From the NCBI GenBank assembly GCA_037200965.1, contig JBBCGK010000001.1, positions 736,001 through 800,000 on the forward strand: 64,000 nt of DNA. The letters run 5' to 3'. The first letter of the stretch is position 1, and every line of letters starts with the position of its first letter. Positions 19,581 through 35,105 of this stretch are shown in pieces. Source of the DNA: a bacterium (lineage in GTDB: Bacteria; Patescibacteriota; Minisyncoccia; Phycocordibacterales; Phycocordibacteraceae). The translations under genes and the position numbers were made by a program. The notes under the pieces are model-generated. The model searched no databases. It was not told the DNA's origin and saw only the letters and a list, made by a program, of their open reading frames with translations.

Positions 19581-19872
19581 TCAAAAAGACAGCGGGGTAG
19601 AGGAGTGGTACCTCGGGAGGCTTGAATTATTCGGGCGTGCGCGCGAGCAATTGCGCGTAAGATCATCTGCCAAATTCGGTGAAACCCTCCTGCGCGAAAG
19701 CACAGACGGCAACGCCGAGCCAAGCCCTAAGAGCAATCGAAGGGAAGGTGTAGAGACTAGACGGTAGACATCCCGCAGGGGATGAAGGCATAGTCCAGAC
19801 CACAAATCATTCGTGCGAGAGCGGCGAAAGCCGTAGTGGTAGGCATAACCTCCAGACTCGGGTTCGAATCCC
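19581..19872 (+). tRNA. split tRNA(CAU) (Met or Ile2) gene. Exon 1 is 19581-19612, exon 2 is 19834-19872. The CCA end is not encoded
   Basis: Exon 1 supplies the acceptor strand AGCGGGG, U8, D-arm GAGG/AGUGGUA/CCUC, anticodon-stem strand GGAGG and loop CU. Exon 2 supplies CAUAA, anticodon-stem strand CCUCC, T-arm UCGGG-UUCGAAU-CCCGA and acceptor strand CCCCGCA + A73. Joining the exons gives a canonical cloverleaf with anticodon loop CU-CAU-AA. Confidence 0.75.
19613..19833 (+). ncRNA. group I self-splicing intron (IC3-like, Azoarcus tRNA-Ile intron-like) in the anticodon loop
   Basis: The intron follows a U and ends with G. It contains CAAAUUCGGUGAAACC, GGCAACGCCGAGCCAAGC and AAGGUGUAGAGACUAGACGG, recalled from memory as near-identical to the Azoarcus group I ribozyme. 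A P2-like hairpin GCGCGAGCAAUUGCGCG is present. Confidence 0.7.
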
Positions 19873-19946
19873 GACCCCGCAACAAGCTTGTGATAGTGGA
19901 ACCCAGACCGGTGCGCCTGCAAAAGCAGTTCAGTATCGGTCCGGAT

Positions 19947-20640: not shown

Positions 20641-21482
20641 GGCATTCAGACTCAGTTGGCACAGCTCCCATACCATGGAAGCTATGTACACTCTCAAACA
20701 GATACCGAGCGAAGCGCAGATTCGGAAGTTCTTGCGCCGTACGCTCTTCGGCAAGAACGTGTTCTGTCCTTCGTGCCGGTCACGAAGGATCGAAAAGCAA
20801 CAGGAGCGGTATCGGTGCCGCACGTGCCGCATCCGCTTCTCCCTCACCTCGCACACCTGGCTCTCGAATCTGAAGCTCCCCCTCGAGCAGTGGTGGGTGC
20901 TGCTCTGGTGCTGGACCATACAAGAGCCGGTACGCCAAGCCGTCACGCTCTCTGGCCTTCCGGAACGCACGGTCAGGCGTTGGTATGCCACCTTCAGGCT
21001 CCATTTGCCCCAGGAAACCCATGTGCTCGAACGTATCGTCCAAATGGACGAAGCGTACTTCAAAAACGCCGCGCTCGTCATGGCCAAGCAGAAAGGTACG
21101 AGAAAGCTCGCCTTCGAGGTATTCCACGGCAGGTACCCAACCAAGACTGATGCCGTCTCATTCCTGTTCGAGCATGTGGCGCCGGGAAGCGAGCTCTGGA
21201 CCGATGGCGGGTCGATATACAAGAACATCAGCCAACGCTGGCCGGTGTCGCACCAGCGAGATATTCACTCCAAATTCGAGTTCGAGCACACCTCTGAGAT
21301 CGAGGGAATGTTCGGGGTATACCGCACCTTCGTGCGCAGGATGTATCATCATCACTGGAGCGAGAACTTGGAGGAATACGTGAGGGAATTCTGCTTCAGA
21401 TTTTCCTCGCCGGAAATCTTCAATTCGCCCCGTATTTACTTAACGAAATCACTCACGCTTGTGCCAACTTGTTCTTAATACC
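20641..21482 (+). mobile_element. IS1595-family insertion sequence (~842 bp) with ~25-bp imperfect terminal inverted repeats and 10-bp flanking direct repeat CCGATGGTGG
   Basis: The left end GGCATTCAGACTCAGTTGGCACAG matches the reverse complement of the right end (GGTATTAAGAACAAGTTGGCACAAG). Direct repeats lie at 20631-20640 and 21483-21492. Confidence 0.7.
20675..21478 (+). CDS. IS1595 family transposase (ISXO2-like DDE, N-terminal zinc ribbon)
   Basis: N-terminal CPSC…CRTC zinc ribbon. Length and layout match the ISXO2-like transposase domain. Confidence 0.75.
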   Translation: MEAMYTLKQIPSEAQIRKFLRRTLFGKNVFCPSCRSRRIEKQQERYRCRTCRIRFSLTSHTWLSNLKLPLEQWWVLLWCWTIQEPVRQAVTLSGLPERTVRRWYATFRLHLPQETHVLERIVQMDEAYFKNAALVMAKQKGTRKLAFEVFHGRYPTKTDAVSFLFEHVAPGSELWTDGGSIYKNISQRWPVSHQRDIHSKFEFEHTSEIEGMFGVYRTFVRRMYHHHWSENLEEYVREFCFRFSSPEIFNSPRIYLTKSLTLVPTCS

Positions 21483-21830: not shown

Positions 21831-22289
21831 ATGAACGATTCCATGGGGATGATGGTCGGCGGCGCCATGATGCTGCCCTCCAAGAATATCGTCGAGAATG
21901 CGATGATGGCGAACAACGTCACGACGCTCGTCGCCGCCGTCAAAGCGGCGGGGCTCGCCGAGACGCTTTCCGGTGCCGGGCCCTTTACCGTCTTTGCTCC
22001 CACAAACGATGCGTTCGCGAAACTGCCCGCGGGTACCGTCGAAACGCTGCTCATGCCGGAAAACAAGGAACGGCTGGTTGGCATTCTAACGTACCATGTC
22101 GTGCCGGGCTCCTGGATGGCGGGCTCCCTTGCCGAAGGGGAACAGAAAGTCAAAACGGTGAACGGCAAGGAGCTCACGATCACCAAAAAGGGCGGGACAG
22201 TGTGGGTAAACGAAGCGATGGTAGAGATGGCGGACATCGTTTCTTCAAACGGCGTTACCCACCTTATCGACACGGTTCTGATGCCGTAA
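21831..22289 (+). CDS. fasciclin (FAS1) domain protein
   Basis: FAS1 motifs …TVFAPTNDAF…LTYHVVPG…THLIDTVLMP. Confidence 0.8.
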   Translation: MNDSMGMMVGGAMMLPSKNIVENAMMANNVTTLVAAVKAAGLAETLSGAGPFTVFAPTNDAFAKLPAGTVETLLMPENKERLVGILTYHVVPGSWMAGSLAEGEQKVKTVNGKELTITKKGGTVWVNEAMVEMADIVSSNGVTHLIDTVLMP

Positions 22290-22314
22290 CTTTCCGGCTC
22301 GTCCTCCGGATACC

Positions 22315-22342
22315 GCGAAACCGCCGTCAGGCGGTTTCGTCG
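22315..22342. terminator. bidirectional hairpin terminator between convergent genes
   Basis: Stem GAAACCGCC-guca-GGCGGUUUC. Confidence 0.5.
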
Positions 22343-22433
22343 CGTTACGAAAGAGCCGCTATCGCTTTCACTGCAATCCCGTACGGATATGCCCCGTACC
22401 AGGCATCTGTCTGATAGATGGTCATACGCATAT

Positions 22434-24401
22434 TTACTTTCGATCAGGGAACCGTATCCGCATTCTCGTGCCTTCGCCGAGCTCGCTTTCGACGGCGATC
22501 GATCCGCCCTGCTGTTCGATGATGCGCTTCGCGAACGCGAGACCGAGGCCGGTGCCTCGCGCGTCATAGGGTGTGTTCTTGCCGCGGTAAAAGCGCTCGA
22601 AAACGCGTTCCCGGTCCTCCGGCAGGATGCCGATGCCCGTATCGGATATGGAGAGCTCGGTTCCGCCGTCTGCCCGCGCGAGCGCGATCCGTATTTCTTT
22701 ACGGCCTTCGGCGCGCATGTACTTGACCGCGTTGCTCGCGATGTTCATGACCGCCTCGCGCAGCCGTTTTGCGTTTCCGCGGACGACGATGCCGGGCTCG
22801 ATGGCGCTCGTGACCTCTATGCCGCGCGGCGCGGCGATGATAACGAGTTCCTCCGCGATCTCCGCGCACAACTGCGTAAGCGGGACGTCTTCCGTCCCCT
22901 CGCTTGCGGCCTGGTCGAGGTTCGCGAGCGACAGGAGGTCGTAGATGAAGTTCGAGAGCGCCGAGAGCGACTGCTCGAAGCCCGCAACCTCGCCGTCGTT
23001 CACGAGAATGCGCTTCAGCCGTTCGATCTTGGTCTGGAAAATGGCGAGCGGGGTCTGGAGATTATGGGAAATATCGTTAAGCATCTGCCGCTGGCTTTCC
23101 TGCGCCCGGCGCAGTTCCTCGGTACGCTCCGCGACTTTTTGCTCGAGCTCTTCGGCATGCCGCTTGACCTGCTCGTACAGGCGGGCGCGCGAAAGCGCGG
23201 TCGCGGCCTGGTACGCGAACGTGGCGAGCAGTTTGGCGTCCTCGCTCGTGTACGCGTCTCCCGATCGTTTCTCGCCGATGCGTATGGCGCCGACGGTCGC
23301 GCCTTCGAACGCTATCGGCACGTACATCGTTCTTCCGCTCGGGTCTTCTTCATCCGCGTCCGAATCGGGAACGGAGATGCGGACGGACGATGCGCGGAAG
23401 ATGGTAATAAGCGCGGCCTCGGCCCTGGCGGTGAGTTCGCCGAAGTCGACGCTCGTGTAGAGCACCTCGCTCAGGTTCCGGAGCGCCTCGGCATAGTCGT
23501 AGGTGTCCTTGAAGAAAATCCTGTCGGTCATCCTGCGGAAGCAGCGCTCAATGAGGGGAGCGCTGAAGATGCCGACCGCGGCCGTGACGGTGCCGCCAAG
23601 GAATGCGGCGGTACCCGACTGCGCCCCGAGCGAGCCGAATGCGGTGATGGCCACGAGATAGAACCCGGTGATAAGACCGAGAAGCGCGCTGTAGATAAGA
23701 CCGCGCTGGATGACGACGCGGATATCCATGAGCTGATGCCGGACGATGGCGTAGGCCGTAAGGGCGACGAACGCGATCGAGGAGGCCGGTCCAAGCAGGT
23801 TGAGCTGGTACATGCCGAGATACGGGAAAATGAGATCGAACACGATGAAGCTTCCGGCAAAAATGAATATGCCGACCGCGAGGTAGAGGATCTGCATCCG
23901 CTGCTTCCCGCGCGCAACGGAGAGATTCCGGCTCAAAAACCACAGCGTCGCGGACACGTGTCCGATATTGGCGAGCGCGTAGACGGGAAAGAGGGGCCCG
24001 AGAATCGCGTGGATGATACCGTTTTCGTCGACGACGATGCCGAGTATGTAGAGGCCGAACGGCAGAAGGAGCGCCGTACACGCAAGCGGAAGGAAGAACC
24101 AGGCGAATCGGAATGATACGGGTTCCCGGGAAGCGAAGGTCCGCGCGAAGAGCGTCATGCCAAAGAGCATCACGATCCCGCCGCCAAGCGCCATCTTGTC
24201 GAACGCGAAGTTGTGCGTGACATAGAGAAGCGAAATACCGGACATCCAGAGCGCCGTGCCAAGCACGAACGCGAAGAAGGACATGTTCACGACGTTTTTC
24301 GGGTTCTTGGAGAGCACGAGCGCGCCGATAGAGAGATTGACCGCGGCGATGGCGAACAGGATCGCCTGTTCAAGACCGAGCGTAATCACGGGCAGATGCA
24401 T
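22434..24401 (-). CDS. sensor histidine kinase with N-terminal multi-TM sensor region
   Basis: HisKA block (…LSHNLQTPLA…) and a C-terminal HATPase_c (ISDTGIGI…GTGLGLA). The start is chosen at MHLPVITL; a longer ORF runs to 24467. Confidence 0.8.
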   Translation of the reverse strand: MHLPVITLGLEQAILFAIAAVNLSIGALVLSKNPKNVVNMSFFAFVLGTALWMSGISLLYVTHNFAFDKMALGGGIVMLFGMTLFARTFASREPVSFRFAWFFLPLACTALLLPFGLYILGIVVDENGIIHAILGPLFPVYALANIGHVSATLWFLSRNLSVARGKQRMQILYLAVGIFIFAGSFIVFDLIFPYLGMYQLNLLGPASSIAFVALTAYAIVRHQLMDIRVVIQRGLIYSALLGLITGFYLVAITAFGSLGAQSGTAAFLGGTVTAAVGIFSAPLIERCFRRMTDRIFFKDTYDYAEALRNLSEVLYTSVDFGELTARAEAALITIFRASSVRISVPDSDADEEDPSGRTMYVPIAFEGATVGAIRIGEKRSGDAYTSEDAKLLATFAYQAATALSRARLYEQVKRHAEELEQKVAERTEELRRAQESQRQMLNDISHNLQTPLAIFQTKIERLKRILVNDGEVAGFEQSLSALSNFIYDLLSLANLDQAASEGTEDVPLTQLCAEIAEELVIIAAPRGIEVTSAIEPGIVVRGNAKRLREAVMNIASNAVKYMRAEGRKEIRIALARADGGTELSISDTGIGILPEDRERVFERFYRGKNTPYDARGTGLGLAFAKRIIEQQGGSIAVESELGEGTRMRIRFPDRK

Positions 24402-24479
24402 ATGGTTCTTATATATTCGCACGCTTTGAGGCAAAAAAATGCGCCCCGGGAATCTCCGTGGGCGCAAGTACGCATGTGG

Positions 24480-25034
24480 TTATTCCCCGAACGCCTGCCG
24501 GAGTTCCATGAGATAGAGCGTCGGCACGGGAGGCTCGGTGAAGTAGAGCATCCCCGCTTCGCCGACCATGGCAAGCACTTCGTCCGCGCGGAGCCGGGCA
24601 TTCCCGATTTCCCGGCAGACGATGCCAAGTTCGCCAAGACGCTTGACGCTGTACGGCTTCGCTTCGATGAGCATGTGCCGCTTGCCAAGCTCGTACGCGA
24701 CGCGCATGGCCGTACGGACCAGGAGATTCGATACTCCCGGCGCCGTCGCGATCCATCTCGTCCCCTGCACGATGTACGGACGGTCGAAGGGATACGGCGC
24801 GTCCTTCGGATCGAATGCGTAACGGCCTTCGATAGGGAAGGGAGAAGCGTCGGCCATTCCTTCAAGCACGATACTTCCGACGATCGCGCCCTTGGCGCGG
24901 GCAATGAAGATAAGCCCGCGCGTCGGGGGAGGCTCGCATTTAAAGCGCTCGCGCATCACCGGCTCGATATAGCCGATCGCTTCGAGGCGCTCCGTTTCGG
25001 AAAGGGCGAGGGAGACTTCAGCGCCGGACTGCAC
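24480..25034 (-). CDS. hypothetical protein (downstream of E1-like gene, overlapping stop/start)
   Basis: 184 aa with coding-like composition. The overlapping + ORF is R-rich antisense. No family recognised. Confidence 0.45.
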   Translation of the reverse strand: MQSGAEVSLALSETERLEAIGYIEPVMRERFKCEPPPTRGLIFIARAKGAIVGSIVLEGMADASPFPIEGRYAFDPKDAPYPFDRPYIVQGTRWIATAPGVSNLLVRTAMRVAYELGKRHMLIEAKPYSVKRLGELGIVCREIGNARLRADEVLAMVGEAGMLYFTEPPVPTLYLMELRQAFGE

Positions 25035-26016
25035 GGGGCACCCACCCTTCCGAGACGACCTTCGCCTGCATGGTTGCGGCGTCGAACTGCATATATCCGG
25101 CCATCGGAGGTACGTGCGCGATGTTGCGCCTGACGCCCGAATTCCGGAGCAAATGCAGGAGGACGCGGTTCGCGAGAAAACCCGCCGCCATTATCGGATT
25201 CGTAGCGATGATCGGCGCTTTCCCTTCCTCGAAGATCCGGCGGTAGAAGGCCGCGGCGTTCGCTTCCGCTGTCTCCGGGCTGTATTCCGGAAGATCCGGA
25301 ACCACCGCTCCGAGAATCGCTTCCGCGATCATGCGCCCCGCCTCCGTATCGCCCGCGCCAGCGCTCGCGCGCAGCCGCTTCGCTTCTTCGTAGCCGAATC
25401 CGACCGCTTCTTCCATCGTCATGCTCTGCGGCGTGTAGAGGAAGAGGTTAGTGCAGAATCCGACCGTGTTGCAGTTGAAGAGCGGTACACCCTCCGCCCT
25501 TCCCCGCTCATGGAGCAGGATGCGCGCGTCAAGCGTGAGGAGCTCGATCTCGTCGAGCACCACGTCGCAGCCCGCAAGGAAGTGATCGACGGTCGTCTCG
25601 TCGATTCCCTGCGGATAGACGACGACCGTCGTGTCGTCGGTGACTTCGCGCGCATCGCGCGCGGTCGTGAGCGCCTTCGACATGCCGACCGTCCGGCGCT
25701 TCGCGCCGAACTGCCGGTTGATATTCGAGACATCGAACGTCTCGCAATCGGCCGTACGCACTTCGCCGACGCCCGCCCGCAGGAAGGCTGGCAGAAGCAG
25801 CCCTCCCATCCCCCCGCAGCCGGCGATGCCGACGACGGCGTCCTGGAGCATGGCCTGCTCGTTTCTCGTGATCCAACCCCAGTTCCGGTCGGTGCGGTTG
25901 CGGTAGTACTCTTCGTCTGCGTCTTTCGGAAGCAGCCGAAGCACGCTTGCTTGCGGCAGATCTTCCGGGATGTCCATCCCCTCGATAACCGTAAGCGAAT
26001 TGTGTTGCCCAGACAT
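25018..26016 (-). CDS. E1-like / ThiF-MoeB family adenylyltransferase with ~65-aa N-terminal extension
   Basis: Rossmann motif GIAGCGGMGG at aa ~60-70 and ThiF-family core. GGAG RBS 7 nt upstream of ATG 26016. Confidence 0.7.
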   Translation of the reverse strand: MSGQHNSLTVIEGMDIPEDLPQASVLRLLPKDADEEYYRNRTDRNWGWITRNEQAMLQDAVVGIAGCGGMGGLLLPAFLRAGVGEVRTADCETFDVSNINRQFGAKRRTVGMSKALTTARDAREVTDDTTVVVYPQGIDETTVDHFLAGCDVVLDEIELLTLDARILLHERGRAEGVPLFNCNTVGFCTNLFLYTPQSMTMEEAVGFGYEEAKRLRASAGAGDTEAGRMIAEAILGAVVPDLPEYSPETAEANAAAFYRRIFEEGKAPIIATNPIMAAGFLANRVLLHLLRNSGVRRNIAHVPPMAGYMQFDAATMQAKVVSEGWVPRAVRR

Positions 26017-26152
26017 CAGATAGCTCCTTAGGTTTGCGATACGGCCCTGACAGAACAAGACCGCTCCCGATCATAGGAAGCGCGCGCTTCACGCCCGTTC
26101 AAGCGCCGCTCACGTTCCGCTTCGCTTGAAGTGAACGGTGGATGATTCGTGC

Positions 26153-26182
26153 ATAAAAATGCGTCCCGCCGAAGCGGGACGC
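26153..26182 (-). terminator. rho-independent terminator (minus strand) after methyltransferase gene
   Basis: Stem GCGUCCCGC-uucg-GCGGGACGC followed by AUUUUUA on the minus strand. Confidence 0.65.
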
Positions 26183-26200
26183 AAAGAAGGGCGTATGCGG

Positions 26201-26896
26201 TCATTTCGTTCCGGTAACGATAAGCGCATACGGCTGGACGCTTGCCATCCGCAGAATCGCGACTTCGTCCTCGTCGCGTGCGGTTTCGAGCAGGCTGGTG
26301 AGCGCGCTTCGCGGCGCGGTTACGGGAAGAGCGCGTGCGTTTAAGAAGCCGCATGCGCCGAAGAGTTTTTCAAGACTCTCTTTCGGACGCGGGTAAAGCC
26401 GAAACGCTTCCCCGAGCGTCGAGAACGTTAGCCCGCCCGGCACTTCGTTCAAAGCGAAGAAGCATGCGGCAAGGACCGTACCTCCGGGGCGTAGCACGCG
26501 CCACTGCTCCGCAACCGCGGCTCCTTGTTCCTCGTACGGCAGGTAGTTGAGCGAATGGAAAGAAACCGCCGCATCGAAGGACTGGTCGGCATAGGGAAGC
26601 GCGAGCATCGAACCTTCCATAAGCGGGAGCCCGCGCGCCGTTCCGCGCGCGATGAAGCTTGGCGAGAGGTCGATGCCGCGGCAGATGGCCCCCGTTTTTT
26701 CGAGCGCCTCGACGAGACCGCCCGAACCGCAGCCGACATCGAGCAACGTTTTTCCGGCAAGCGAACCGAGCCGTTCCGTAAGCATGGCCGCGATATCCGG
26801 ATACGCGATCCTGTCCTTGAACGCCGCGGTCTGCCGGTCGTAGCGTTCTCCCGCGCGCTCGTAGGCATCAAGCGCGTCTTGTTCATATGCACGCAT
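26201..26896 (-). CDS. class I SAM-dependent methyltransferase
   Basis: Motif I LLDVGCGSGGL and post I/II motifs (…LRPGGTVL…). Confidence 0.8.
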   Translation of the reverse strand: MRAYEQDALDAYERAGERYDRQTAAFKDRIAYPDIAAMLTERLGSLAGKTLLDVGCGSGGLVEALEKTGAICRGIDLSPSFIARGTARGLPLMEGSMLALPYADQSFDAAVSFHSLNYLPYEEQGAAVAEQWRVLRPGGTVLAACFFALNEVPGGLTFSTLGEAFRLYPRPKESLEKLFGACGFLNARALPVTAPRSALTSLLETARDEDEVAILRMASVQPYALIVTGTK

Positions 26897-27007
26897 CGCA
26901 CATCACTCCTCAGGTTTGGATGGTGAACAATCTGCTCCAAGCCTATGCAGTGCGGCATGAAGAAAACGTGCGCTTCGAATGAGGCGTGCGTAAAGTTCCG
27001 TTCAATA

Positions 27008-27679
27008 TCAGCGCGCTTCGATCTTGTAGCCTCTGCCGGGCACGGTGCGGATGAGCCGGTCCTTTCCGGTGTCGCCGATTTTCTTCCGGAGGCTCAGGAT
27101 GTGCGATTCGATGGTGTTCGAGAAGATGTCGATATTCATGTCCCAGACATGCTCGAGGATCATGCCGCGGGAGAGCACGATGCCTTCGTTTTTCATGAGG
27201 TATTCGAGCAGCATAAACTCCTTGCGCGTGAGGGTGATCGATTTCTTCCCGCGCGTCACCGTGCAGCCCTTGGTGTCGAGCGTCAGGTCTTCCACCCTGA
27301 GGACTTCCTTTTCGATGGCCGCCGGACGCCGCAGAAGCGCGCGGATACGGGCTAGAAGTTCCTCGAGCGCGAAAGGCTTTGCGAGATAATCGTCCGCCCC
27401 GGCATTCAGAAGGGCGATTTTCCGGGTCGTGTCGGTTTTGACCGAGACCACGAGTATCGGCATGGTCTTGCCGCTCGCGCGTATCTCGGTGCATACCTGG
27501 AGCCCTTCCTTCTTCGGCAGCATGTTGTCGAGCACGACGAGATCGTAGTCGTTTATCCGGCCGAGATACGAACCTTTCTCGCCGTCTTCGGCGATGTCGA
27601 CCGCGAAATACTCGGACTCGAGCGAGTCCTTGAGAAAGCGGGCTATTTTCGGTTCATCTTCGACAACGAGTATTCTCAT
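27008..27679 (-). CDS. OmpR/PhoB-family response regulator
   Basis: Receiver domain (ILVVEDEP…) plus a winged-helix C-terminal domain (…RTVPGRGYKI). Confidence 0.85.
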   Translation of the reverse strand: MRILVVEDEPKIARFLKDSLESEYFAVDIAEDGEKGSYLGRINDYDLVVLDNMLPKKEGLQVCTEIRASGKTMPILVVSVKTDTTRKIALLNAGADDYLAKPFALEELLARIRALLRRPAAIEKEVLRVEDLTLDTKGCTVTRGKKSITLTRKEFMLLEYLMKNEGIVLSRGMILEHVWDMNIDIFSNTIESHILSLRKKIGDTGKDRLIRTVPGRGYKIEAR

Positions 27680-28025
27680 GCCAGGAGGTAGTTAGGTCCC
27701 GTCTTCCTCTTTATCTCGCCATCATCAGACATTGGATAGTATTTTATCACGGCGACGGTACGCTTCATATCGCCCGCTGCGTTTACGCCTCGTTTATGCG
27801 CTGATACCGGGCTCGCTCGCGCAACACCTGCCTCGAAAGAGGACGGATAGAAGCGAGCCCGATATCACCGCGCAAGCGACGCATACTCGTACCATATAGT
27901 CCGCGTTCTCCTATGGCAACTCTTAATGGTGTGGACTCGCGTATTCGCGCTCGCCGTCCTGCTATACTGAAAACCGTTCTGGTGTTGCGTACCAGCTCTA
28001 TTCCGGAGAACGGCATCCGTCGTTC

Positions 28026-31000
28026 ATGCTCTTCCTCCTTGTACGCACACTCATAAGACCGCATACGTCCCTTCGCGCCTTTCCTTCCTTGGCAGGGAAG
28101 GGCTTCCTGTTCTTGTTCGTGCTTTGGTCCTGTTCGATAAGCGCGCTGCCTGCATACGCGGCATGGGACGGACAGCCCTATGCGCCGGGCGCAACGCTTG
28201 ACCCGGAGTGCGGGCCGAGCGACTCTAATTGCAAGACGCTTGCGAGCGCGGACGCGACGACGCTTGAAGGCAGGTCCGGAAGCTATTACCTTGCCAACTC
28301 CTTCTCGACGACCTCGGCCGCGTATTTCCTTTCTGACAATCCGGGGCTCTCGTTCGCGACCACCAGTTCTGACTATTGGCTCGCGCATCGGTCCACGTCC
28401 GACCTTCCGGAAGGCTCGCGCCTCTACTACACCGATGCCCGCGCGGACGCGCGCATTCTTGCGACAACTACTCTTGCGAATATCATCTCGCTTCCGGGCT
28501 TGTCTTTGTCCGCGTCGCAGCTTACTGGCTTCGGTATTCCTTTCTACAATTTCTTTCACGCGACGACGACCGATGCGCTCGCGGAAGGTTCCCTGCATCG
28601 CTACTACAGCGACGTGCTCGCCCGCGGAGCGCTTGGCGTATCTGCCGGGGCTCTCGCGTATGACAGCGGCACGGGAATCCTTTCGGTTGCGGGCGGATAT
28701 ACGATTCCTTTATCAGCGTCCACGACGGAGTGGGGCGAGGCATATGACAACCGCATCACGTCGGCCTCGGCGCCTCTCACGATCGCGAACCGCGAGATAA
28801 GCCTCGGCATTGTTGATGCGGGGCACGGCGGCACCGGCCTCGCCTCGTACAATCCGGGCGCACTTCTGTATGCCGATGCCGACGGAAACCTCACGACGCT
28901 TTCGCCCGGTTCTTCCGGTACCGTGCTTAAGATCGCGGGCGGCGTCCCGACCTGGGGCACGGATCTTTCAAGCGGCGGCGGGGGAGGAGCCGTAGCCTGG
29001 GCGACGACATCCGACAGCCTCGCGATCTATCCGATGGACAGCACGAACGTCGTCATCGTGGGCGCAAGCGCGACATCGTCGGCGACGAGCGTCTTTGAAG
29101 TGCACGGGAGGTCGTATTTCACGACCAATGTCGGCATCGGCACGACTTCTCCGCTCTCGGCGCTTTCCGTCGCGGGGAGCGGCTTCTTCACCGGCAACCT
29201 GACTTCGGCCAATATCACCGCCACCGGAACGCTTTCAGTCTCGGGTGCTGGCACGTCGACGTTTGCCGGGCCGTTCTTAGCAGGGAATCTTGCGGTCGCC
29301 GGACTTCCCGCGGGCCTTATAAAGGCCGGGGCGGGCGGGTATCTCCGGGGCGCCGTCGCGGGAACGGATTATTTCGATCCTGCCGCGTTCGGTTCAACTT
29401 TCTATTCTTTTTTTCACGCGACGACGACCGATGCGCTTGCCGAAGGTTCGGTGCATAAGTATTGGAGCGATACGCTCTTCGACAACCGCCTCTCCGCGAC
29501 CACGTCGCTTCCGGGCCTCTCTTCCATCGGTTCGTATACCGGGCTCATCGGCGCGAACAACGGTTCCATGTACCAAATCGCCACTTCGACCAACTTCGTG
29601 ACATCGATCGCGGCCGCATACCCGCTCTCCGTTTCCGGACCAGCCGGGGCGGTGACAATCTCGACCGCGCTCGCTACCACCACATTCCAGCACTCATACG
29701 GTTCCGCGCAGATCGGACAAATCATCCTTGCCACTTCAAGCGCGGCAACGAGTAACGGCATCACGGTGGGGCAGACCATCACGAACTCCGGCGGCGTCTT
29801 CACGTTCGCTCCGGCGGTATCCGTATCGAACATCCCCAATGCCGCCCTGCAGAATTCCGCCGTCACCGTCAACGGCACCCTGATCCCGCTTGGCGGCTCG
29901 GGTACTGTCGCCGCCGCTTCTTCCACGCTCCTTGGAGATAACAATACTTTCTCGGGCGGCAATACGTTTTTGAGCACCATCACCGGCTCCGTTTCTGGCA
30001 ATGCCGGCACCGTTACGAACGGCGTATACACGACTACTTTCGGCGGCCTTTTCGACAACCGCCTCTCCGCGACCACGTCGCTTCCGGGCCTTACGGCGGT
30101 TTCGTCCGGCCTCACGGGCGTCCTTAAGGCGGCGGCGGGCTCTCTCTCGGCGGCGGCACCGGGGATCGATTTCGAAAATCCGCTTTCGTTCCTCTATCCG
30201 CTCGCGCGCACCGCAAACAGCGTAAGCCTTGCCTTCGGGACGACAACTTCAAACACTTGGGGAGGAACCCAGACTTTCACCAACAACCCGATACTCGGCA
30301 CTCTCACCGGTCTCTTCTACGGAAACAACGGATCGCTTGCGGCGACGGCGACATCCTCCGTCACCAGCGGCACCGGCATCGGCTTTTCAGGCACGCCGGG
30401 AGCGCTTGTCGGCGGTACTCCGCTTACGATTACGAATACCGGCGTGACGTCGAATATTGCCGGGACCGGCATCAGCGTCTCGGGCGCGACCGGCGCCGTT
30501 ACGATAAGCGCGGCGAACGTGCCGAACAGCGCGCTTGAGAACTCGACGATCGGGCTTGCTTCGGGCGACTCCTCCCTTACGGTTTCCGGCTCGCCCGCCT
30601 CTCTTGGAGGCTCGCTTTCCGCCTCCCTTAACACCGCGCATCCGAATACGTTCACCGCGCTTCAGCAATTCAGCGCAAATGCGTCGACGACGGGAATCTC
30701 TTCTTCGTATGCGTCCTCGACCAAAGCCTTCCTTGGAAGCCTGTCGATAGGGAATCTGACCGGCATCCTGCGCGCGGCCGGGGGTGCCGTATCGGCCTCG
30801 CTCGTGTCCCTCGCTTCCGACGTGACCGGAGTGCTCGGCGTTATAAACGGCGGGACGGGATGGGATTCGATACAGTCCGGCAGCATCCCGTACGGAAACG
30901 GCGCCGGGGCGCTCGCCACCACGAGCCCGGGAACCAACGGGCAGACGCTCGCGCTTGTCGCCGGAGTTCCGGCCTGGATCGCGACGACAACCGCGGGCAC

Positions 31001-34000
31001 CGGCCTTACGTATTCCGGCGGCAGCTTCAATGTGAATACGGCGCAGAATGTCGCGAAGCTTTCGAACCTCACGGGGAACGGATTCGTCAAAACTATAAAC
31101 GGCGACGGCACGCTTTCGGTCGATACCAATACCTACCTCGCCTCCATTGGTCCCGCAGGACAAAGCCAGAGCGGTCCTGCGGTCGCCATTGCCTCCTCGA
31201 CCGATTCTGCGACCGGCCTTATCTCGGGCGTCGTGATAACCGGAAGCGCGAATACGCTTACCTGGAAGGCCGTGCTCTCCGGCGTCTTGAGTGCCGCAAA
31301 CGGCGGCACCGGATCGACGACGCTTTCGGGAATCCTCAAAGGAAACGGCACGGGAGTGCTTATGACCGCGGTTCCGGGAACCGACTATCAGGCGGCGGGG
31401 AACTATCTCACCGCGCTTACCGGTGACATCTCCGCGTCGGGTCCGGGTTCCGCCGCCGCGACGCTCGCGACCGTGAACGCGGATACGGGGTCGTTCGGGG
31501 GTTCGACCGCCATCCCGACTTTTGTCGTAAACGGGAAAGGGCTCGTCACATCCGCGGGCACCGCGGCGGTTATCGCGCCCGCGGGAACGCTCACCGGAAC
31601 CGTACTTGCTTCGAACATCCTCGCTTCTTCGCTTACATCCGTCGGAACGCTCGGCACGCTCTCCGTTTCCGGCCAGGCTTCGCTTGCGGGCGCGAGCTCG
31701 ACCGCCTTTTCCTCGTCCTATGCGTCTTCGACCAGTGCGTTCTTCGGAAACCTGTCCGTCGGAAGTCTTTCGGGAATACTGCGCGCGACCGCCGGAGCGG
31801 TCTCCGCGGGCGCGGTGAATCTTGCCTCGGAAATATCCGGGATGCTCGGCGTCGCAAACGGCGGCACGGGCGCGGGCTCGTTTGCGGCAGGCTCCCTCAT
31901 CTACGGAAACGGTACGGGCCCGCTTCAGAGCGCCGCGACCTCGTCCGTTTCAAACGGCGCTGGCATCTCGGTCTCGGGCGCCGCCGCCGTGGTCGGGAGC
32001 GGGGGACTCACCATCACCAACACGGGCATCACGTCCGTCACGCCGCAATTCGGTGCGGCCATCAGTAACGGCGGGCTAACCGTCGCGTCCTCGACGGCGG
32101 GCACCGACTTTTCGATAACCGGATCGGGAAGCACGATCACGTTCAATCTTCCGACCGCGTCTGCCGCAAACCGCGGCTTGCTTTCCTCCGCCGACTGGAG
32201 CGCCTTCAGCGCCAAGCAGGGCGCGCTTACGTTCGCGTATCCGCTCCAGAATAGCGCGAATACCGTATCGCTCGCCTTCGGGACGACGACCGCGAATACC
32301 TGGGGACCGGTGCAAACTTTCACGAACGTTCCCGTGCTCGGCACTCTTTCGGGAATCATTTATGGGAATAACGGATCGCTTGCCGCGACCGCCACTTCGA
32401 CGCTTGGCGTCGCGCTTGCGGACACTACGGGCTCGCTCCCGGTCGACCGGGGAGGCACCGGATCGACGACGCTCGGCGGCATTTTGAAGGGAAACGGAAC
32501 TTCCGGCATCGCGACCGCCGTCCCCGGCATCGATTATCAGCCCGCCGGGAGCTATCTCACCGGCAACCAGACGGTTACGCTTTCGGGCGACGTCTCGGGA
32601 AGCGGCGCCACTTCGATCACGACCGCGATCGGGGCGGGGAAGGTGACGAATGCGATGCTCCTGGGCGCTATTGCCGCCGCGAAGCTCATCGGAACCGATA
32701 TCACGACCGTCGGGACGATCGTAAGCGGCGTGTGGCAGGGCTCCGTGATCGGATCAGCCTACGGCGGGGCGGGAGCCGTAAGCGGAATACTCAAAGCGAA
32801 CGGTTCCGGCAACGTCTCCGCCGCCTCCGCCGGAACCGACTACGTCGCTCCGAACTCCTCGCCCACATTTGCGGGCCTCACGCTCCTAAGCGCGCTTCCC
32901 GTCGCAAGCGGCGGGACGGGCTGGAGCGCGATACAGTCCGGCAGCATCCCGTACGGAAACGGTTCCGGTGCCCTCGCGACTACCTCGAGCGGGGCGGCGG
33001 GGAGCGTGCTCGCGCTTGTCGCCGGAGTTCCGGCCTGGGTCGCGACGACCACGTTCTCCACGGGCCTTACGTATACGGCCGGAAGCGTGACCGTGAACAC
33101 CGCACAGAGCATCGCGAAGCTTTCGAACCTGACAAGCAATGGATTCGTCAAAACTATAAACGGCGACGGCACGCTCTCGGTCGATACGAACACCTACCTC
33201 GCCTCCATTGGTCCCGCAGGACAAAGCCAGAGCGGCCCCGCAATTACGATCGCAACTTCGACCGCGGGAACCGACATATCGGTGACGGCTTCCGGCAATA
33301 CGATCACGTTCAACCTCCCGACCGCATCTGCCGCAAACCGCGGCTTGCTTTCCTCGTCCGATTGGACGACATTCAACGGCAAAGTGTCGACCGGCGCGTT
33401 CACATCCTCCGGCCTCACCCTTTCGACCGGTAAGCTTCTCGGAAGAAGTTTGGACGGTACGGGAGCGGCCGAAGAGATAACGGTCGGGAGCGGCCTCTCT
33501 CTTTCTGGCGGGACTCTCTCCGCGTCTGGGAGCGGCATCAGCGCACTTGGTCCTTCGGGACAAACCCAAAGCGGTGCGACGGTCACCATTGCCACCTCGA
33601 CAAGCCTTGCAAACGGCGTCACGTCCGCGCTTGTGGTCGTGGGTTCTTCGAACACGCTTATGTTCACTCCTTCCGTTTCCGGCGTGCTCACGGTTCCTGG
33701 GGGAGGCACCGGTGCCGGTACGCTCACGGGACTCGTTTCGGGAAACGGCACGAACGCTTTCACCGCGACCGCGAACGGCGCAAACGGCCAGGTGCTTGCT
33801 ATGTCCGCCGGAGCGCCGACCTGGGTCGCAACGACCACGTTCTCGACCGGACTTACGTACACGGCGGGCACGGTGACGGTCAACACGGTGCAAAGCGTCA
33901 CGAAGCTTTCGAATCTCGCCACGAACGGATTCGTGAAAACGATCAACGCCGACGGCACGCTCTCGATCGACACCAACACCTATCTCACCTCTGCCCTCAC

Positions 34001-35105
34001 CTCAATAGGTCCCGCCGGTCAGGTACAGAACGGCCCGGCTATCGTTATCGCCACCTCGACGACCGCATTTAACGGCATTACGGTGGGCGACACGATAACC
34101 GGTTCGGGGAACACGCTTACGTGGAAGCCCAGCTGGAGCGGTTCGCTCAGCGTCCCTGGCGGCGGCACGGGGGCGACTTCGTTCGGGCAGGGCTGGATAT
34201 TCTCAAGCGGCGGCACGGGTGCCCTTGCTGCCTCGACAAGCCCGACCGTGAACTATCTTATCGCCACCTCGACGACCGCCGCTTCGATCTTCAATTACCG
34301 CGTCGGCATCGGTACGAACGCCCCCGCAACCGCGCTTGACGTGAACGGCGATATCACGATCGAGACCTTGACCTGCAACACATCGCTCGTCGGACTGGGC
34401 ACCGACGCGAACGGCAAGATCTATTGCAAGAGCGTCGTAGGTTCCGATGAGCGGCTTAAGTCGAATATCGAAAGTCTCGGCGACGAAAATGGCCTTGCTC
34501 TCATAGACTCGCTGCGCCCTGTCTCCTATGACTGGAAGGACCCGAACGTGTATGGCGGCATGTCCGGCCTCCAGTACGGGTTCATCGCGCAGCAGGCGCT
34601 TTCTGCCGCGCCGACTCTCGTCGGCACGACGTCGCCGACAGAACTGACGCCCGACGTCACGTACACGTTCAACTATTTCGGCCTCATCGCGCCCCTCGTG
34701 AAAGCGACACAGCAGCTTGACGCGCGGTTCGGCGCGATTGCTTCAACGAGCGCGGATGCGTCTCCGACGTCTTTTGCTCAGGCATTCTTTGGCCGTCTTC
34801 GGGAATGGTTCGCCGACGCGGCAAACGGAATCGAGGACTTCTATGCGAATCGTGTCCATACTTCGCAACTATGCTTAGCAGTCTCCGGCGGGGAAGAGGA
34901 ATGCTTTACGGGCGACGAGCTGAAAGCCCTTAAGGAGAAAGCCGGACAGCATGACAAGGTTCCGCCGCCCGGCATCGGGCCTGTCATCATCGAGGATGTT
35001 CCGCCGCCGGACACCACTGCCTCATCGTCCGAGCCGGAATCAGAAGCCGCTGCGGCTATGCCAGTGCCTCCCGATCCCGCTACTGACTTACCCGCGCCCG
35101 AGTAA
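28026..35105 (+). CDS. giant (2359 aa) secreted surface protein, Gly/Thr/Ser-rich repeat region, C-terminal intramolecular-chaperone (peptidase S74-like) domain and Pro-rich tail
   Basis: Signal-peptide-like N-terminus, then an AAWDGQPYAPGATLDPECGPSDSNCK module. Long near-identical internal repeats. C-terminal VVGSDERLKSNIESL…LRPVSYDWK…GFIAQQ resembles the autoproteolytic tail-fibre chaperone domain, followed by a PPPG/PPPD tail. Confidence 0.8.
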   Translation: MLFLLVRTLIRPHTSLRAFPSLAGKGFLFLFVLWSCSISALPAYAAWDGQPYAPGATLDPECGPSDSNCKTLASADATTLEGRSGSYYLANSFSTTSAAYFLSDNPGLSFATTSSDYWLAHRSTSDLPEGSRLYYTDARADARILATTTLANIISLPGLSLSASQLTGFGIPFYNFFHATTTDALAEGSLHRYYSDVLARGALGVSAGALAYDSGTGILSVAGGYTIPLSASTTEWGEAYDNRITSASAPLTIANREISLGIVDAGHGGTGLASYNPGALLYADADGNLTTLSPGSSGTVLKIAGGVPTWGTDLSSGGGGGAVAWATTSDSLAIYPMDSTNVVIVGASATSSATSVFEVHGRSYFTTNVGIGTTSPLSALSVAGSGFFTGNLTSANITATGTLSVSGAGTSTFAGPFLAGNLAVAGLPAGLIKAGAGGYLRGAVAGTDYFDPAAFGSTFYSFFHATTTDALAEGSVHKYWSDTLFDNRLSATTSLPGLSSIGSYTGLIGANNGSMYQIATSTNFVTSIAAAYPLSVSGPAGAVTISTALATTTFQHSYGSAQIGQIILATSSAATSNGITVGQTITNSGGVFTFAPAVSVSNIPNAALQNSAVTVNGTLIPLGGSGTVAAASSTLLGDNNTFSGGNTFLSTITGSVSGNAGTVTNGVYTTTFGGLFDNRLSATTSLPGLTAVSSGLTGVLKAAAGSLSAAAPGIDFENPLSFLYPLARTANSVSLAFGTTTSNTWGGTQTFTNNPILGTLTGLFYGNNGSLAATATSSVTSGTGIGFSGTPGALVGGTPLTITNTGVTSNIAGTGISVSGATGAVTISAANVPNSALENSTIGLASGDSSLTVSGSPASLGGSLSASLNTAHPNTFTALQQFSANASTTGISSSYASSTKAFLGSLSIGNLTGILRAAGGAVSASLVSLASDVTGVLGVINGGTGWDSIQSGSIPYGNGAGALATTSPGTNGQTLALVAGVPAWIATTTAGTGLTYSGGSFNVNTAQNVAKLSNLTGNGFVKTINGDGTLSVDTNTYLASIGPAGQSQSGPAVAIASSTDSATGLISGVVITGSANTLTWKAVLSGVLSAANGGTGSTTLSGILKGNGTGVLMTAVPGTDYQAAGNYLTALTGDISASGPGSAAATLATVNADTGSFGGSTAIPTFVVNGKGLVTSAGTAAVIAPAGTLTGTVLASNILASSLTSVGTLGTLSVSGQASLAGASSTAFSSSYASSTSAFFGNLSVGSLSGILRATAGAVSAGAVNLASEISGMLGVANGGTGAGSFAAGSLIYGNGTGPLQSAATSSVSNGAGISVSGAAAVVGSGGLTITNTGITSVTPQFGAAISNGGLTVASSTAGTDFSITGSGSTITFNLPTASAANRGLLSSADWSAFSAKQGALTFAYPLQNSANTVSLAFGTTTANTWGPVQTFTNVPVLGTLSGIIYGNNGSLAATATSTLGVALADTTGSLPVDRGGTGSTTLGGILKGNGTSGIATAVPGIDYQPAGSYLTGNQTVTLSGDVSGSGATSITTAIGAGKVTNAMLLGAIAAAKLIGTDITTVGTIVSGVWQGSVIGSAYGGAGAVSGILKANGSGNVSAASAGTDYVAPNSSPTFAGLTLLSALPVASGGTGWSAIQSGSIPYGNGSGALATTSSGAAGSVLALVAGVPAWVATTTFSTGLTYTAGSVTVNTAQSIAKLSNLTSNGFVKTINGDGTLSVDTNTYLASIGPAGQSQSGPAITIATSTAGTDISVTASGNTITFNLPTASAANRGLLSSSDWTTFNGKVSTGAFTSSGLTLSTGKLLGRSLDGTGAAEEITVGSGLSLSGGTLSASGSGISALGPSGQTQSGATVTIATSTSLANGVTSALVVVGSSNTLMFTPSVSGVLTVPGGGTGAGTLTGLVSGNGTNAFTATANGANGQVLAMSAGAPTWVATTTFSTGLTYTAGTVTVNTVQSVTKLSNLATNGFVKTINADGTLSIDTNTYLTSALTSIGPAGQVQNGPAIVIATSTTAFNGITVGDTITGSGNTLTWKPSWSGSLSVPGGGTGATSFGQGWIFSSGGTGALAASTSPTVNYLIATSTTAASIFNYRVGIGTNAPATALDVNGDITIETLTCNTSLVGLGTDANGKIYCKSVVGSDERLKSNIESLGDENGLALIDSLRPVSYDWKDPNVYGGMSGLQYGFIAQQALSAAPTLVGTTSPTELTPDVTYTFNYFGLIAPLVKATQQLDARFGAIASTSADASPTSFAQAFFGRLREWFADAANGIEDFYANRVHTSQLCLAVSGGEEECFTGDELKALKEKAGQHDKVPPPGIGPVIIEDVPPPDTTASSSEPESEAAAAMPVPPDPATDLPAPE

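Follow-up and report, generated by a model that had tools for sequence, protein, structure and literature searches.

A ThiF-like enzyme and a predicted GNAT acyltransferase set within a two-component system of Patescibacteria: a candidate module for N-acyl amino acid activation

We analyzed a 64,000-nucleotide stretch of contig JBBCGK010000001.1 (assembly GCA_037200965.1, positions 736,001 to 800,000), hereafter the window, which comes from a bacterium of the Patescibacteriota, and focused on a module of five genes built around a ThiF/E1-like adenylyltransferase (E1). A sequence-only reading of this DNA had placed the E1-like protein, a class I S-adenosylmethionine (SAM) methyltransferase (MTase), and an open reading frame (ORF) of 184 aa between a histidine kinase (HK) and an OmpR regulator. 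Pfam and NCBIfam analysis, together with the ORF list, confirms all five genes and places every one of them on the minus strand of the window. Relatives of the encoded proteins that carry a name belong to the Patescibacteria/Parcubacteria group, Candidatus Liptonbacteria, and Candidatus Paceibacterota. As set out below, the enzymes of this module probably make a small, lipid-like molecule that is linked to the sensor. The features, in window coordinates, are the following.

27679-27008, minus strand: OmpR/PhoB-family response regulator (RR), the first gene of the module (Pfam Response_reg 1.1e-26, Trans_reg_C 2.3e-25)
26897-27007, minus strand: spacer between RR and MTase with a candidate regulator box, CTTTAC ... 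TTTCTTCAT, putative in function and assigned with low confidence
26896-26201, minus strand: class I SAM MTase, a predicted accessory tailoring enzyme (Methyltransf_11 2.3e-20)
26183-26160, minus strand: terminator-like hairpin with a 10-bp stem, a TTCG loop, and a T-run, directly 3' of the MTase stop
26016-25018, minus strand: ThiF/E1-like protein (E1), 332 aa (PF00899 3.7e-27)
25034-24480, minus strand: predicted GNAT-fold acyltransferase, 184 aa, assigned from an AlphaFold2 (AF2) model and Foldseek in place of a Pfam or NCBIfam match
24401-22434, minus strand: sensor HK (Pfam GAF_3, HisKA, HATPase_c)

The start of E1 was set at the ATG at 26016, which is preceded by AAGGAG and yields a 332-aa product identical to a database protein (P0006); on these two grounds, a TTG at 26058 was ruled out as the start codon. 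The following gene begins with a GTG and overlaps the E1 stop by 17 nt.

The gene set recurs well outside the window. Scanning metagenomes with an E1 alignment returned 64 loci, and pooling these with the other loci gave 58 distinct ones; a scan of genome contigs with the single E1 sequence returned two loci only, one of which (L007) was not used further. The order RR-E1-GNAT-HK recurs across the 58 related loci. Because the pair of E1 and the small protein, with RR and HK on its flanks, is found in dozens of independent contigs, the recurrence is far beyond chance. Where enough sequence is available (37 loci), E1 is mostly followed by the GNAT gene or fused with it, in 22 loci by direct homology and in three by fusion (L028, L029, L035). 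In five further loci (L030, L033, L037, L069, L014), the protein downstream of E1 is divergent and gives weak Pfam matches to the T_hemolysin and FeeM families, all below the gathering cut-offs. Fusion proteins provide a second line of evidence. Three E1::GNAT fusions of ∼500 aa (P0019, P0067, P0245) carry a homologue of the 184-aa protein at their C-terminus, and three others (P0049, P0057, P0095) carry a different, N-acyl amino acid synthase (NAS)-type GNAT (Acetyltransf_5/Autoind_synth/FeeM). Two GNAT::MTase fusions (P0156, P0244) join a GNAT of the 184-aa type to a Methyltransf_11 domain. The two kinds of fusion and the conserved RR-E1-GNAT-HK order tie E1, the GNAT, and the MTase together, and on this comparative sequence evidence we take the E1, GNAT, MTase, RR, and HK genes to belong to one system.

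The two-component genes recur as well. Of the 44 related loci with enough upstream sequence, 28 have an RR homologue upstream of E1, which in 22 is the direct neighbor on the same strand; in 23/29 loci with enough downstream sequence, the gene that directly follows E1/GNAT encodes an HK. Hydropathy and Pfam analysis show the window HK to consist of ∼8 hydrophobic/transmembrane segments with short loops, followed by GAF, HisKA, and HATPase_c domains. Its sensor region (residues 1-300) has homologues in the kinases of 33 related loci, with scores of up to 266 bits. The region has no direct Pfam match in the window protein itself, and its orthologs match HisKA_7TM at 3e-12 to 1e-6. The RR has a receiver and a winged-helix domain, and together the two proteins form a pair of the OmpR/HisKA_7TM type, the seven-transmembrane (7TM) assignment being made through the orthologs. 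Recurring synteny and the homologous sensors in 33 loci identify the two-component genes as an integral, co-inherited part of the module and not as chance neighbors.

E1 retains the residues expected of an adenylating enzyme. The ATP-motif positions G66/G68/G69, D90, N98, R101, Q102, K114, and D155 are invariant in 29/29 members of the E1 family, and D155 aligns with a conserved Asp of TcdA. A CxxC Zn site is absent from both the sequence and the family alignment, and we found no conserved catalytic Cys in the crossover region. We considered whether E1 might be a housekeeping enzyme, a ThiF/MoeB activator of a sulfur carrier or a TcdA-type enzyme of tRNA ct6A formation that has come to lie between two-component genes by chance. 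In keeping with this, TcdA is the best match among PDB sequences (3e-10) and ThiF the best match by fold. The scores, however, fall far under the cut-offs of the corresponding equivalog models: 66 bits against 275 for ThiF (TIGR02356), 40.5 against 304 for TcdA (NF011696), and 33 against 377 for MoeB (TIGR02355), and E1 is also far below the curated cut-off for SAMP-E1 enzymes. The sequence-only reading saw no ThiS/MoaD-like partner, and this holds for the whole window: the 64 kb contain three ORFs of 55-115 aa that end in GG, none near the cassette and none beta-grasp-like, and no ThiS/MoaD-like partner was seen in the related loci either. When taken with the conserved synteny and fusions of GNAT and two-component genes, these results leave a housekeeping role very improbable.

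The closest NCBIfam models for E1 are PRK08223 (1e-39), PRK14851, and PRK14852, which describe uncharacterized families, and the Rv1355c family NF005901 (3.5e-21); all of these matches are below cut-off. With the last model, which represents TrzS, E1 scores 75 bits against a cut-off of 476, so E1 is not a member of that family, although this model outscores those of ThiF, MoeB, and TcdA. For direct comparison, we used an Rv1355c-family (TrzS-like) protein from a Rhodococcus plasmid record, which served as a stand-in for a ranking against TyzA/TyzB/OxzB. E1 is 28% identical to its ThiF domain (E 1e-19, over the core), and both proteins have an N-terminal R-x-R-x-DRN...IT..EQ motif. Together, these sequence features suggest to us that E1 is an ATP-dependent, carboxylate-adenylating enzyme, and we propose that it activates, and may cyclise, an N-acyl amino acid.

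The N-terminus of E1 had been the starting point for a different idea, in which a cassette related to that of microcin C or of another ribosomally synthesized and post-translationally modified peptide (RiPP) uses an extension of E1 to clamp a precursor peptide for adenylation and subsequent methylation. The count of ∼65 residues ahead of the GxGxxG motif was right, since the GCGGMGG motif begins at residue 66, but ∼35 of these residues are the normal N-terminal helix of ThiF, and the real extension is only ∼30 residues long. In the AF2 model of E1 (pLDDT 93), this extension is a short beta-hairpin with predicted strands at residues 9-13 and 24-28. The hairpin is partly conserved in the family alignment (LP..., YRLLP) and is truncated in P0021, P0036, and P0084. 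An MccB-type clamp would be expected to span ∼80-100 residues. Neither sequence comparison, the AF2 model, nor Foldseek reveals any likeness of the extension to such a clamp; MccB is a marginal sequence match (E 1e-3) and ranks 40th by fold, PaaA ranks 13th, and ThiF ranks first, so that neither RiPP enzyme is a privileged match. The earlier failure to find an Asn-terminated precursor is also upheld: between 19400 and 32700, no ORF of 5-40 aa with an ATG start ends in Asn on either strand. What speaks for a peptide substrate is that an N-terminal extension exists, that MccB is detectable at all, and that MTases occur in some microcin-C-like clusters (PMC4010828). Against it stands, in addition, the obligatory partner, which is a GNAT of the NAS type. 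MccB and PaaA thus share only the ThiF-like core with E1, and neither their peptide-clamp domain (resembling a RiPP recognition element) nor a precursor peptide was found here. With no clamp-like extension and no Asn-terminated ORF, the microcin-C version is largely refuted, and we give it next to no credence. The wider suggestion of an adenylation-modification cassette survives in a version directed at a small molecule.

The 184-aa protein was described at first as uncharacterized. The overlap with the E1 stop and the lack of a family match of its own both stand, but structure prediction recognizes what sequence models do not. Its AF2 model (pLDDT 90) leaves us confident that the protein adopts a GNAT fold, and the best Foldseek matches in the PDB are the N-acyl homoserine lactone (AHL) synthases TofI, MesI, and LasI; RpaI, BjaI, and the N-acyl amino acid synthase FeeM appear lower in the list among generic GNATs. 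A word-indexed search retrieved four relatives and an exhaustive profile search retrieved 221 cluster representatives. In a scan of this family at E ≤ 0.01, 30/89 sequences match PF12261 T_hemolysin (best 1.4e-8) and 21/89 match PF21926 FeeM (best 2.9e-6), with no match for the window protein itself, which indicates a remote relationship to these two families. NCBIfam holds no model for the family, and comparing the family profile with PDB sequences gave nothing significant. The likeness to AHL synthases is one of fold only: neither the window GNAT nor its close homologues match PF00765 Autoind_synth, a model reached only by the other kind of GNAT, that of the E1 fusions P0057 and P0095. We propose that the 184-aa protein is an acyltransferase resembling N-acyl amino acid synthases.

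The MTase occupies a slot in which other enzymes may also be found. The window protein is 32-33% identical to the MTase halves of the GNAT::MTase fusions P0156 and P0244 (E 3e-38 and 9e-42). The locus encoding P0156 reads RR-ThiF-GNAT::MT and continues with a truncated ORF that has no domain annotation. MTase homologues lie in the same slot in L008 and L055. In 8/57 loci (L012, L014, L016, L019, L046, L054, L060, L064), the slot holds a gene of the ADI/DDAH superfamily, as at L046:1415-2254 (Pfam ADI 5.7e-10, DDAH_eukar 1.9e-5), which hints at a substrate or head group with an arginine-like guanidino function. At L019:4340-5620, a GT1 glycosyltransferase (EryCIII-like/Glyco_transf_28) is inserted between E1 and the GNAT gene, as would suit a small-molecule product open to glycosylation. 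These accessory genes (MTase, ADI/DDAH, and GT1) encode small-molecule tailoring enzymes. Separately, we note that an Acidobacteriota metagenome-assembled genome (L007:9849-10420) contains an ORF in which an MTase-like N-terminus runs into an E1 fragment (residues 69-186, 54% identity); it adjoins an acyl-CoA-synthetase-like gene and resembles a deletion remnant or an assembly chimera.

A GNAT of this kind beside a ThiF-like gene has its closest characterized precedents in the oxazolone synthetases. In Pseudoalteromonas rubra, the N-acyl amino acid synthase OxzA and the ThiF-like, ATP-dependent cyclase OxzB make oxazolones (bioRxiv 10.1101/2020.06.11.147165). The oxazolone synthetase TyzA/TyzB/TyzC includes an acyltransferase, TyzA, whose structural neighbors are FeeM and BjaI (PMC10404671). 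For TrzA/TrzS of Mycobacterium tuberculosis, where TrzS is Rv1355c, the ring is closed before desaturation, and its saturated form was observed as an intermediate (PMC12856293), and producers of stieleriacines have a predicted set of NasY, an adenylyltransferase/cyclase, and a nitroreductase (PMC12479983). In these systems, an acyltransferase similar to AHL synthases or FeeM uses acyl-CoA to form an N-acyl amino acid, the ThiF-like enzyme cyclises it with ATP, and a flavin oxidase of the nitroreductase superfamily desaturates the ring to a stable 4-arylidene oxazolone.

The window module has in common with them the AHL-synthase/FeeM-like GNAT next to a ThiF-like gene with an intact ATP/adenylation motif, a ThiF domain that is detectably related, and GNAT structural neighbors (FeeM, BjaI) that are those of TyzA. 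It differs in several respects. The flavin-dependent oxidase (FDO), fused or adjacent in the oxazolone synthetases, is missing; the GNAT belongs to another, uncurated subfamily with its remote kinship to T_hemolysin and FeeM; E1 precedes the GNAT, and the pair is set between an OmpR regulator and a 7TM HK; SAM MTase, ADI/DDAH-like, or glycosyltransferase genes are optional accessories; and the hosts are Patescibacteria, whereas oxazolone synthetases are found in Proteobacteria, Actinomycetota, and Planctomycetota. As far as analogy allows a judgment, the module would work like the oxazolone synthetases, but it is not one of them because it lacks their defining flavin oxidase and falls below the cut-off of the Rv1355c family. 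TcdA (CsdL) offers a further parallel to what we propose here, as it is ThiF-like and its target is an N-carbamoylated amino acid, the N-carbamoyl-threonine moiety of t6A, whose carboxylate it adenylates and cyclises (PMC12596934). Unlike E1 of the window, it acts on a tRNA nucleoside and has neither GNAT nor two-component partners. What is new here is an NAS+ThiF pair that lacks the oxidase, lies within a two-component system dedicated to it, and is conserved in a major radiation of uncultivated bacteria. Our literature searches turned up no paper that connects either Patescibacteria or histidine kinases with ThiF-like enzymes or N-acyl amino acid synthases.

Full-length ThiF relatives with ∼30% identity are also carried on plasmids, and their neighbors bear on the substrate. 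In the five annotated plasmid contexts that we inspected, an N-acyl-, formyl-, or carbamoyltransferase lies beside ThiF in 5/5 and an exporter in 4/5. On pRetIE4771a of R. etli, ThiF is accompanied by a GNAT (Acetyltransf_5/FeeM), a DMT exporter, EctB, and a fatty acid-CoA ligase; on plasmids of B. cereus and L. plantarum by a formyltransferase, an MFS exporter, and ArsR; and on small plasmids of S. epidermidis by a carbamoyltransferase split into two ORFs, an MFS exporter, and ArsR (these four contexts, in the order S. epidermidis, L. plantarum, B. cereus, and R. etli, are L072-L075). One of the S. epidermidis ORFs, annotated as a hypothetical protein, had been considered as a possible GNAT; hhalign was negative, and the ORF is part of the split carbamoyltransferase. 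The Salmonella plasmid p28NP2 (L081, CP152067.1 8944-12144) has the order GNAT, ThiF (30% identical to E1 of the window), LCM-type SAM MTase, and PEP-mutase-family protein; this MTase shows no homology to that of the window and was dismissed as its counterpart. The plasmid clusters thus resemble the window in placing ThiF beside an N-acylating enzyme, in the Salmonella case with a SAM MTase as well, and differ from it in having ArsR- or LysR-type regulators and exporters instead of a two-component system; they are uncharacterized. The simplest common denominator that fits these neighborhoods is a ThiF clade acting on the carboxylate of an N-acylated amino acid because formyl- and carbamoyltransferases bring their own activated donors.

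Of the schemes that we weighed, we lean with modest confidence towards one that begins with synthesis of an N-acyl amino acid, proceeds to ATP-dependent activation or cyclisation at its carboxylate, and couples the product, optionally methylated, to a dedicated membrane sensor. The GNAT would N-acylate an amino acid, possibly one with the arginine-like head group hinted at by the accessory genes of related loci. The ThiF-like enzyme would then adenylate the free carboxylate of this N-acyl amino acid with ATP, and intramolecular attack on the acyl-adenylate would lead to a 5(4H)-oxazolone (azlactone) or to some other derivative that is activated or cyclised, as in OxzB, TyzB, TrzS, and TcdA, unless another nucleophile captures it. 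With no flavin desaturase to stabilize the ring, the MTase, where present, might tailor or trap the labile product, conceivably by O-methylation of the 5-hydroxyoxazole tautomer or by C- or N-methylation. The resulting small, lipophilic product would be coupled to the 7TM-GAF HK and the OmpR regulator, either as their ligand, in an autoinducer-type loop, or as an output under their control.

Several observations weigh against this scheme. The 184-aa protein has no Pfam or NCBIfam match of its own, and three loci (L013, L049, L057) pass from E1 directly to the HK without a GNAT gene. Only a few of the loci encode the MTase. No flavin oxidase of the nitroreductase superfamily was found in the cassette, in the 64-kb window, or in 56/57 related loci by phmmer with a single TrzS-like FDO query; since a desaturase is absent and saturated azlactones hydrolyze readily, the pathway may end in another compound. 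The E1 gene comes before that of the GNAT, and E1 forms the N-terminal part of every E1::GNAT fusion, an arrangement that would also fit an E1 acting first. Last, co-location with a two-component system is silent on the direction in which information flows. The only oxidase among the 57 loci occurs on a soil contig (L039:1-5310), which has a classical pair of ThiF and nitroreductase, then an HK, then an E1 of the oxidase-less type found in Patescibacteria (the candidate phyla radiation, CPR).

The position of E1 brings up the reverse order of reactions, in which the ThiF-like enzyme adenylates a fatty or other carboxylic acid and the GNAT takes the acyl-adenylate, or an E1-bound acyl group, as donor for an amine. 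Such a pair would stand in for acyl-CoA or acyl-ACP where, as is often the case in these organisms, CoA and fatty acids are not synthesized. Many Patescibacteria are indeed without fatty-acid and CoA biosynthesis, which counts for this order, as does the fatty acid-CoA ligase that the R. etli relative has of its own and that the CPR loci do not. The known enzymes argue otherwise. In every characterized ThiF+NAS pair, ThiF acts on the N-acyl amino acid (PMC10404671, PMC12856293, 10.1101/2020.06.11.147165), activation of fatty acids is not known for any ThiF-like enzyme (review PMC12596934), and the donors of the formyl- and carbamoyltransferases in the plasmid relatives (formyl-THF and carbamoyl phosphate) need no adenylation. 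We consider the reverse order unlikely. If the clade acts on N-acylated amino acids, as proposed above, the GNAT would work ahead of E1, although its gene comes after.

The classical substrates of E1-like enzymes are protein C-termini, and a giant surface-type protein (28026-35105) is encoded divergently from the RR. Both facts would suit a protein-directed system of a ubiquitin-like or lipidation type, in which E1 adenylates the C-terminus of a protein (the kinase or a surface protein, for instance), which the GNAT then transfers or acylates. We regard this as improbable. No ubiquitin-like or GG-terminated partner ORF was found, E1 lacks the conserved catalytic Cys and the CxxC, the accessory genes of related loci (MTase, ADI/DDAH-like, GT1) encode small-molecule enzymes, and the giant protein is not conserved beside the module in other loci.

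The scheme of N-acylation followed by ThiF-dependent activation leads to the question of what the sensor perceives. In LuxM-LuxN, AinS-AinR, CqsA-CqsS, and agrBDCA, the genes for signal synthesis stand beside a polytopic membrane HK that senses the signal. The window has a similar layout, with synthesis genes that adjoin a kinase whose sensor is almost wholly in the membrane. An autoinducer reading is plausible by this analogy because signal synthases adjoin polytopic membrane kinases in LuxM/LuxN, CqsA/CqsS, and agrBDCA. LuxM, CqsA, and AgrB/D are not homologous to the window enzymes and have different folds and chemistries, and the kinase of the window is a putative receptor. A more far-reaching version, which we advance only tentatively and hold to be rather doubtful, is a signalling circuit common to the Patescibacteria lineage, in which the GNAT and ThiF-like enzymes make a signal derived from an N-acyl amino acid (an FDO-independent azlactone/oxazole-type or methylated compound), the HK acts as its receptor, and the OmpR regulator completes a loop of autoinduction. 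If true, such a circuit would be a functional analogue of LuxM/LuxN or Agr assembled from unrelated parts and would serve these episymbionts as a language of cell-cell communication or host sensing.

The intergenic sequences provide two leads on how the module may be regulated. The hairpin at 26183-26160 is the highest-scoring terminator-like site in 22000-28200 and may separate transcription of RR-MTase from that of E1-GNAT-HK. As a predicted terminator directly after the MTase, it suggests that E1-GNAT-HK could form a unit with its own regulated promoter. The second lead comes from the spacers between RR and E1 in ∼22 related loci. The words TTCTTT, TTTCTT, and TCTTTA occur in 11-13/22 of these spacers, where shuffled sequences predict ∼3, and TTTCTTTA and TTCATAA (also TCATAA) are enriched as well. 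The window spacer between RR and MTase (26897-27007) holds words related to these k-mers. The enriched words could be a putative regulator-binding box; a consistent spacing between them was not found in the ∼22 loci.

Patescibacteria account for much of bacterial diversity, and their genomes of ∼1 Mb encode very little biosynthetic capacity. A module of four to five genes that is kept across many of their lineages is a candidate for a small-molecule signal, or an envelope lipid, together with its receptor. How these bacteria sense their hosts or each other is scarcely understood, and the module is a concrete, clonable lead. With hundreds of members and relatives on plasmids, the ThiF clade also suggests a broader rule, by which ThiF-like enzymes would activate N-acylated amino acids; this rule would take in a desaturase-free branch with new product chemistry.

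Other genes surround the module in the window. The protein encoded divergently from the RR (28026-35105, plus strand) is 2359 aa long, strongly repetitive, rich in Gly/Ser/Thr/Ala, and of a surface type. On the kinase side, a fasciclin-domain protein (21831-22289, plus strand) is convergent with the HK, and an IS1595-family transposase (DDE_Tnp_IS1595 and Zn-ribbon; 20675-21478, plus strand) lies ∼1 kb past the kinase end of the module. Further out, a group I intron interrupts a tRNA gene at 19591-19883 (plus strand; Rfam RF00028, 58.8 bits at 19614-19815). ARAGORN calls this tRNA only in intron mode or after excision of the intron in silico, and the excised tRNA is a tRNA-Leu(tag) or Ser(tga), according to the splice point.

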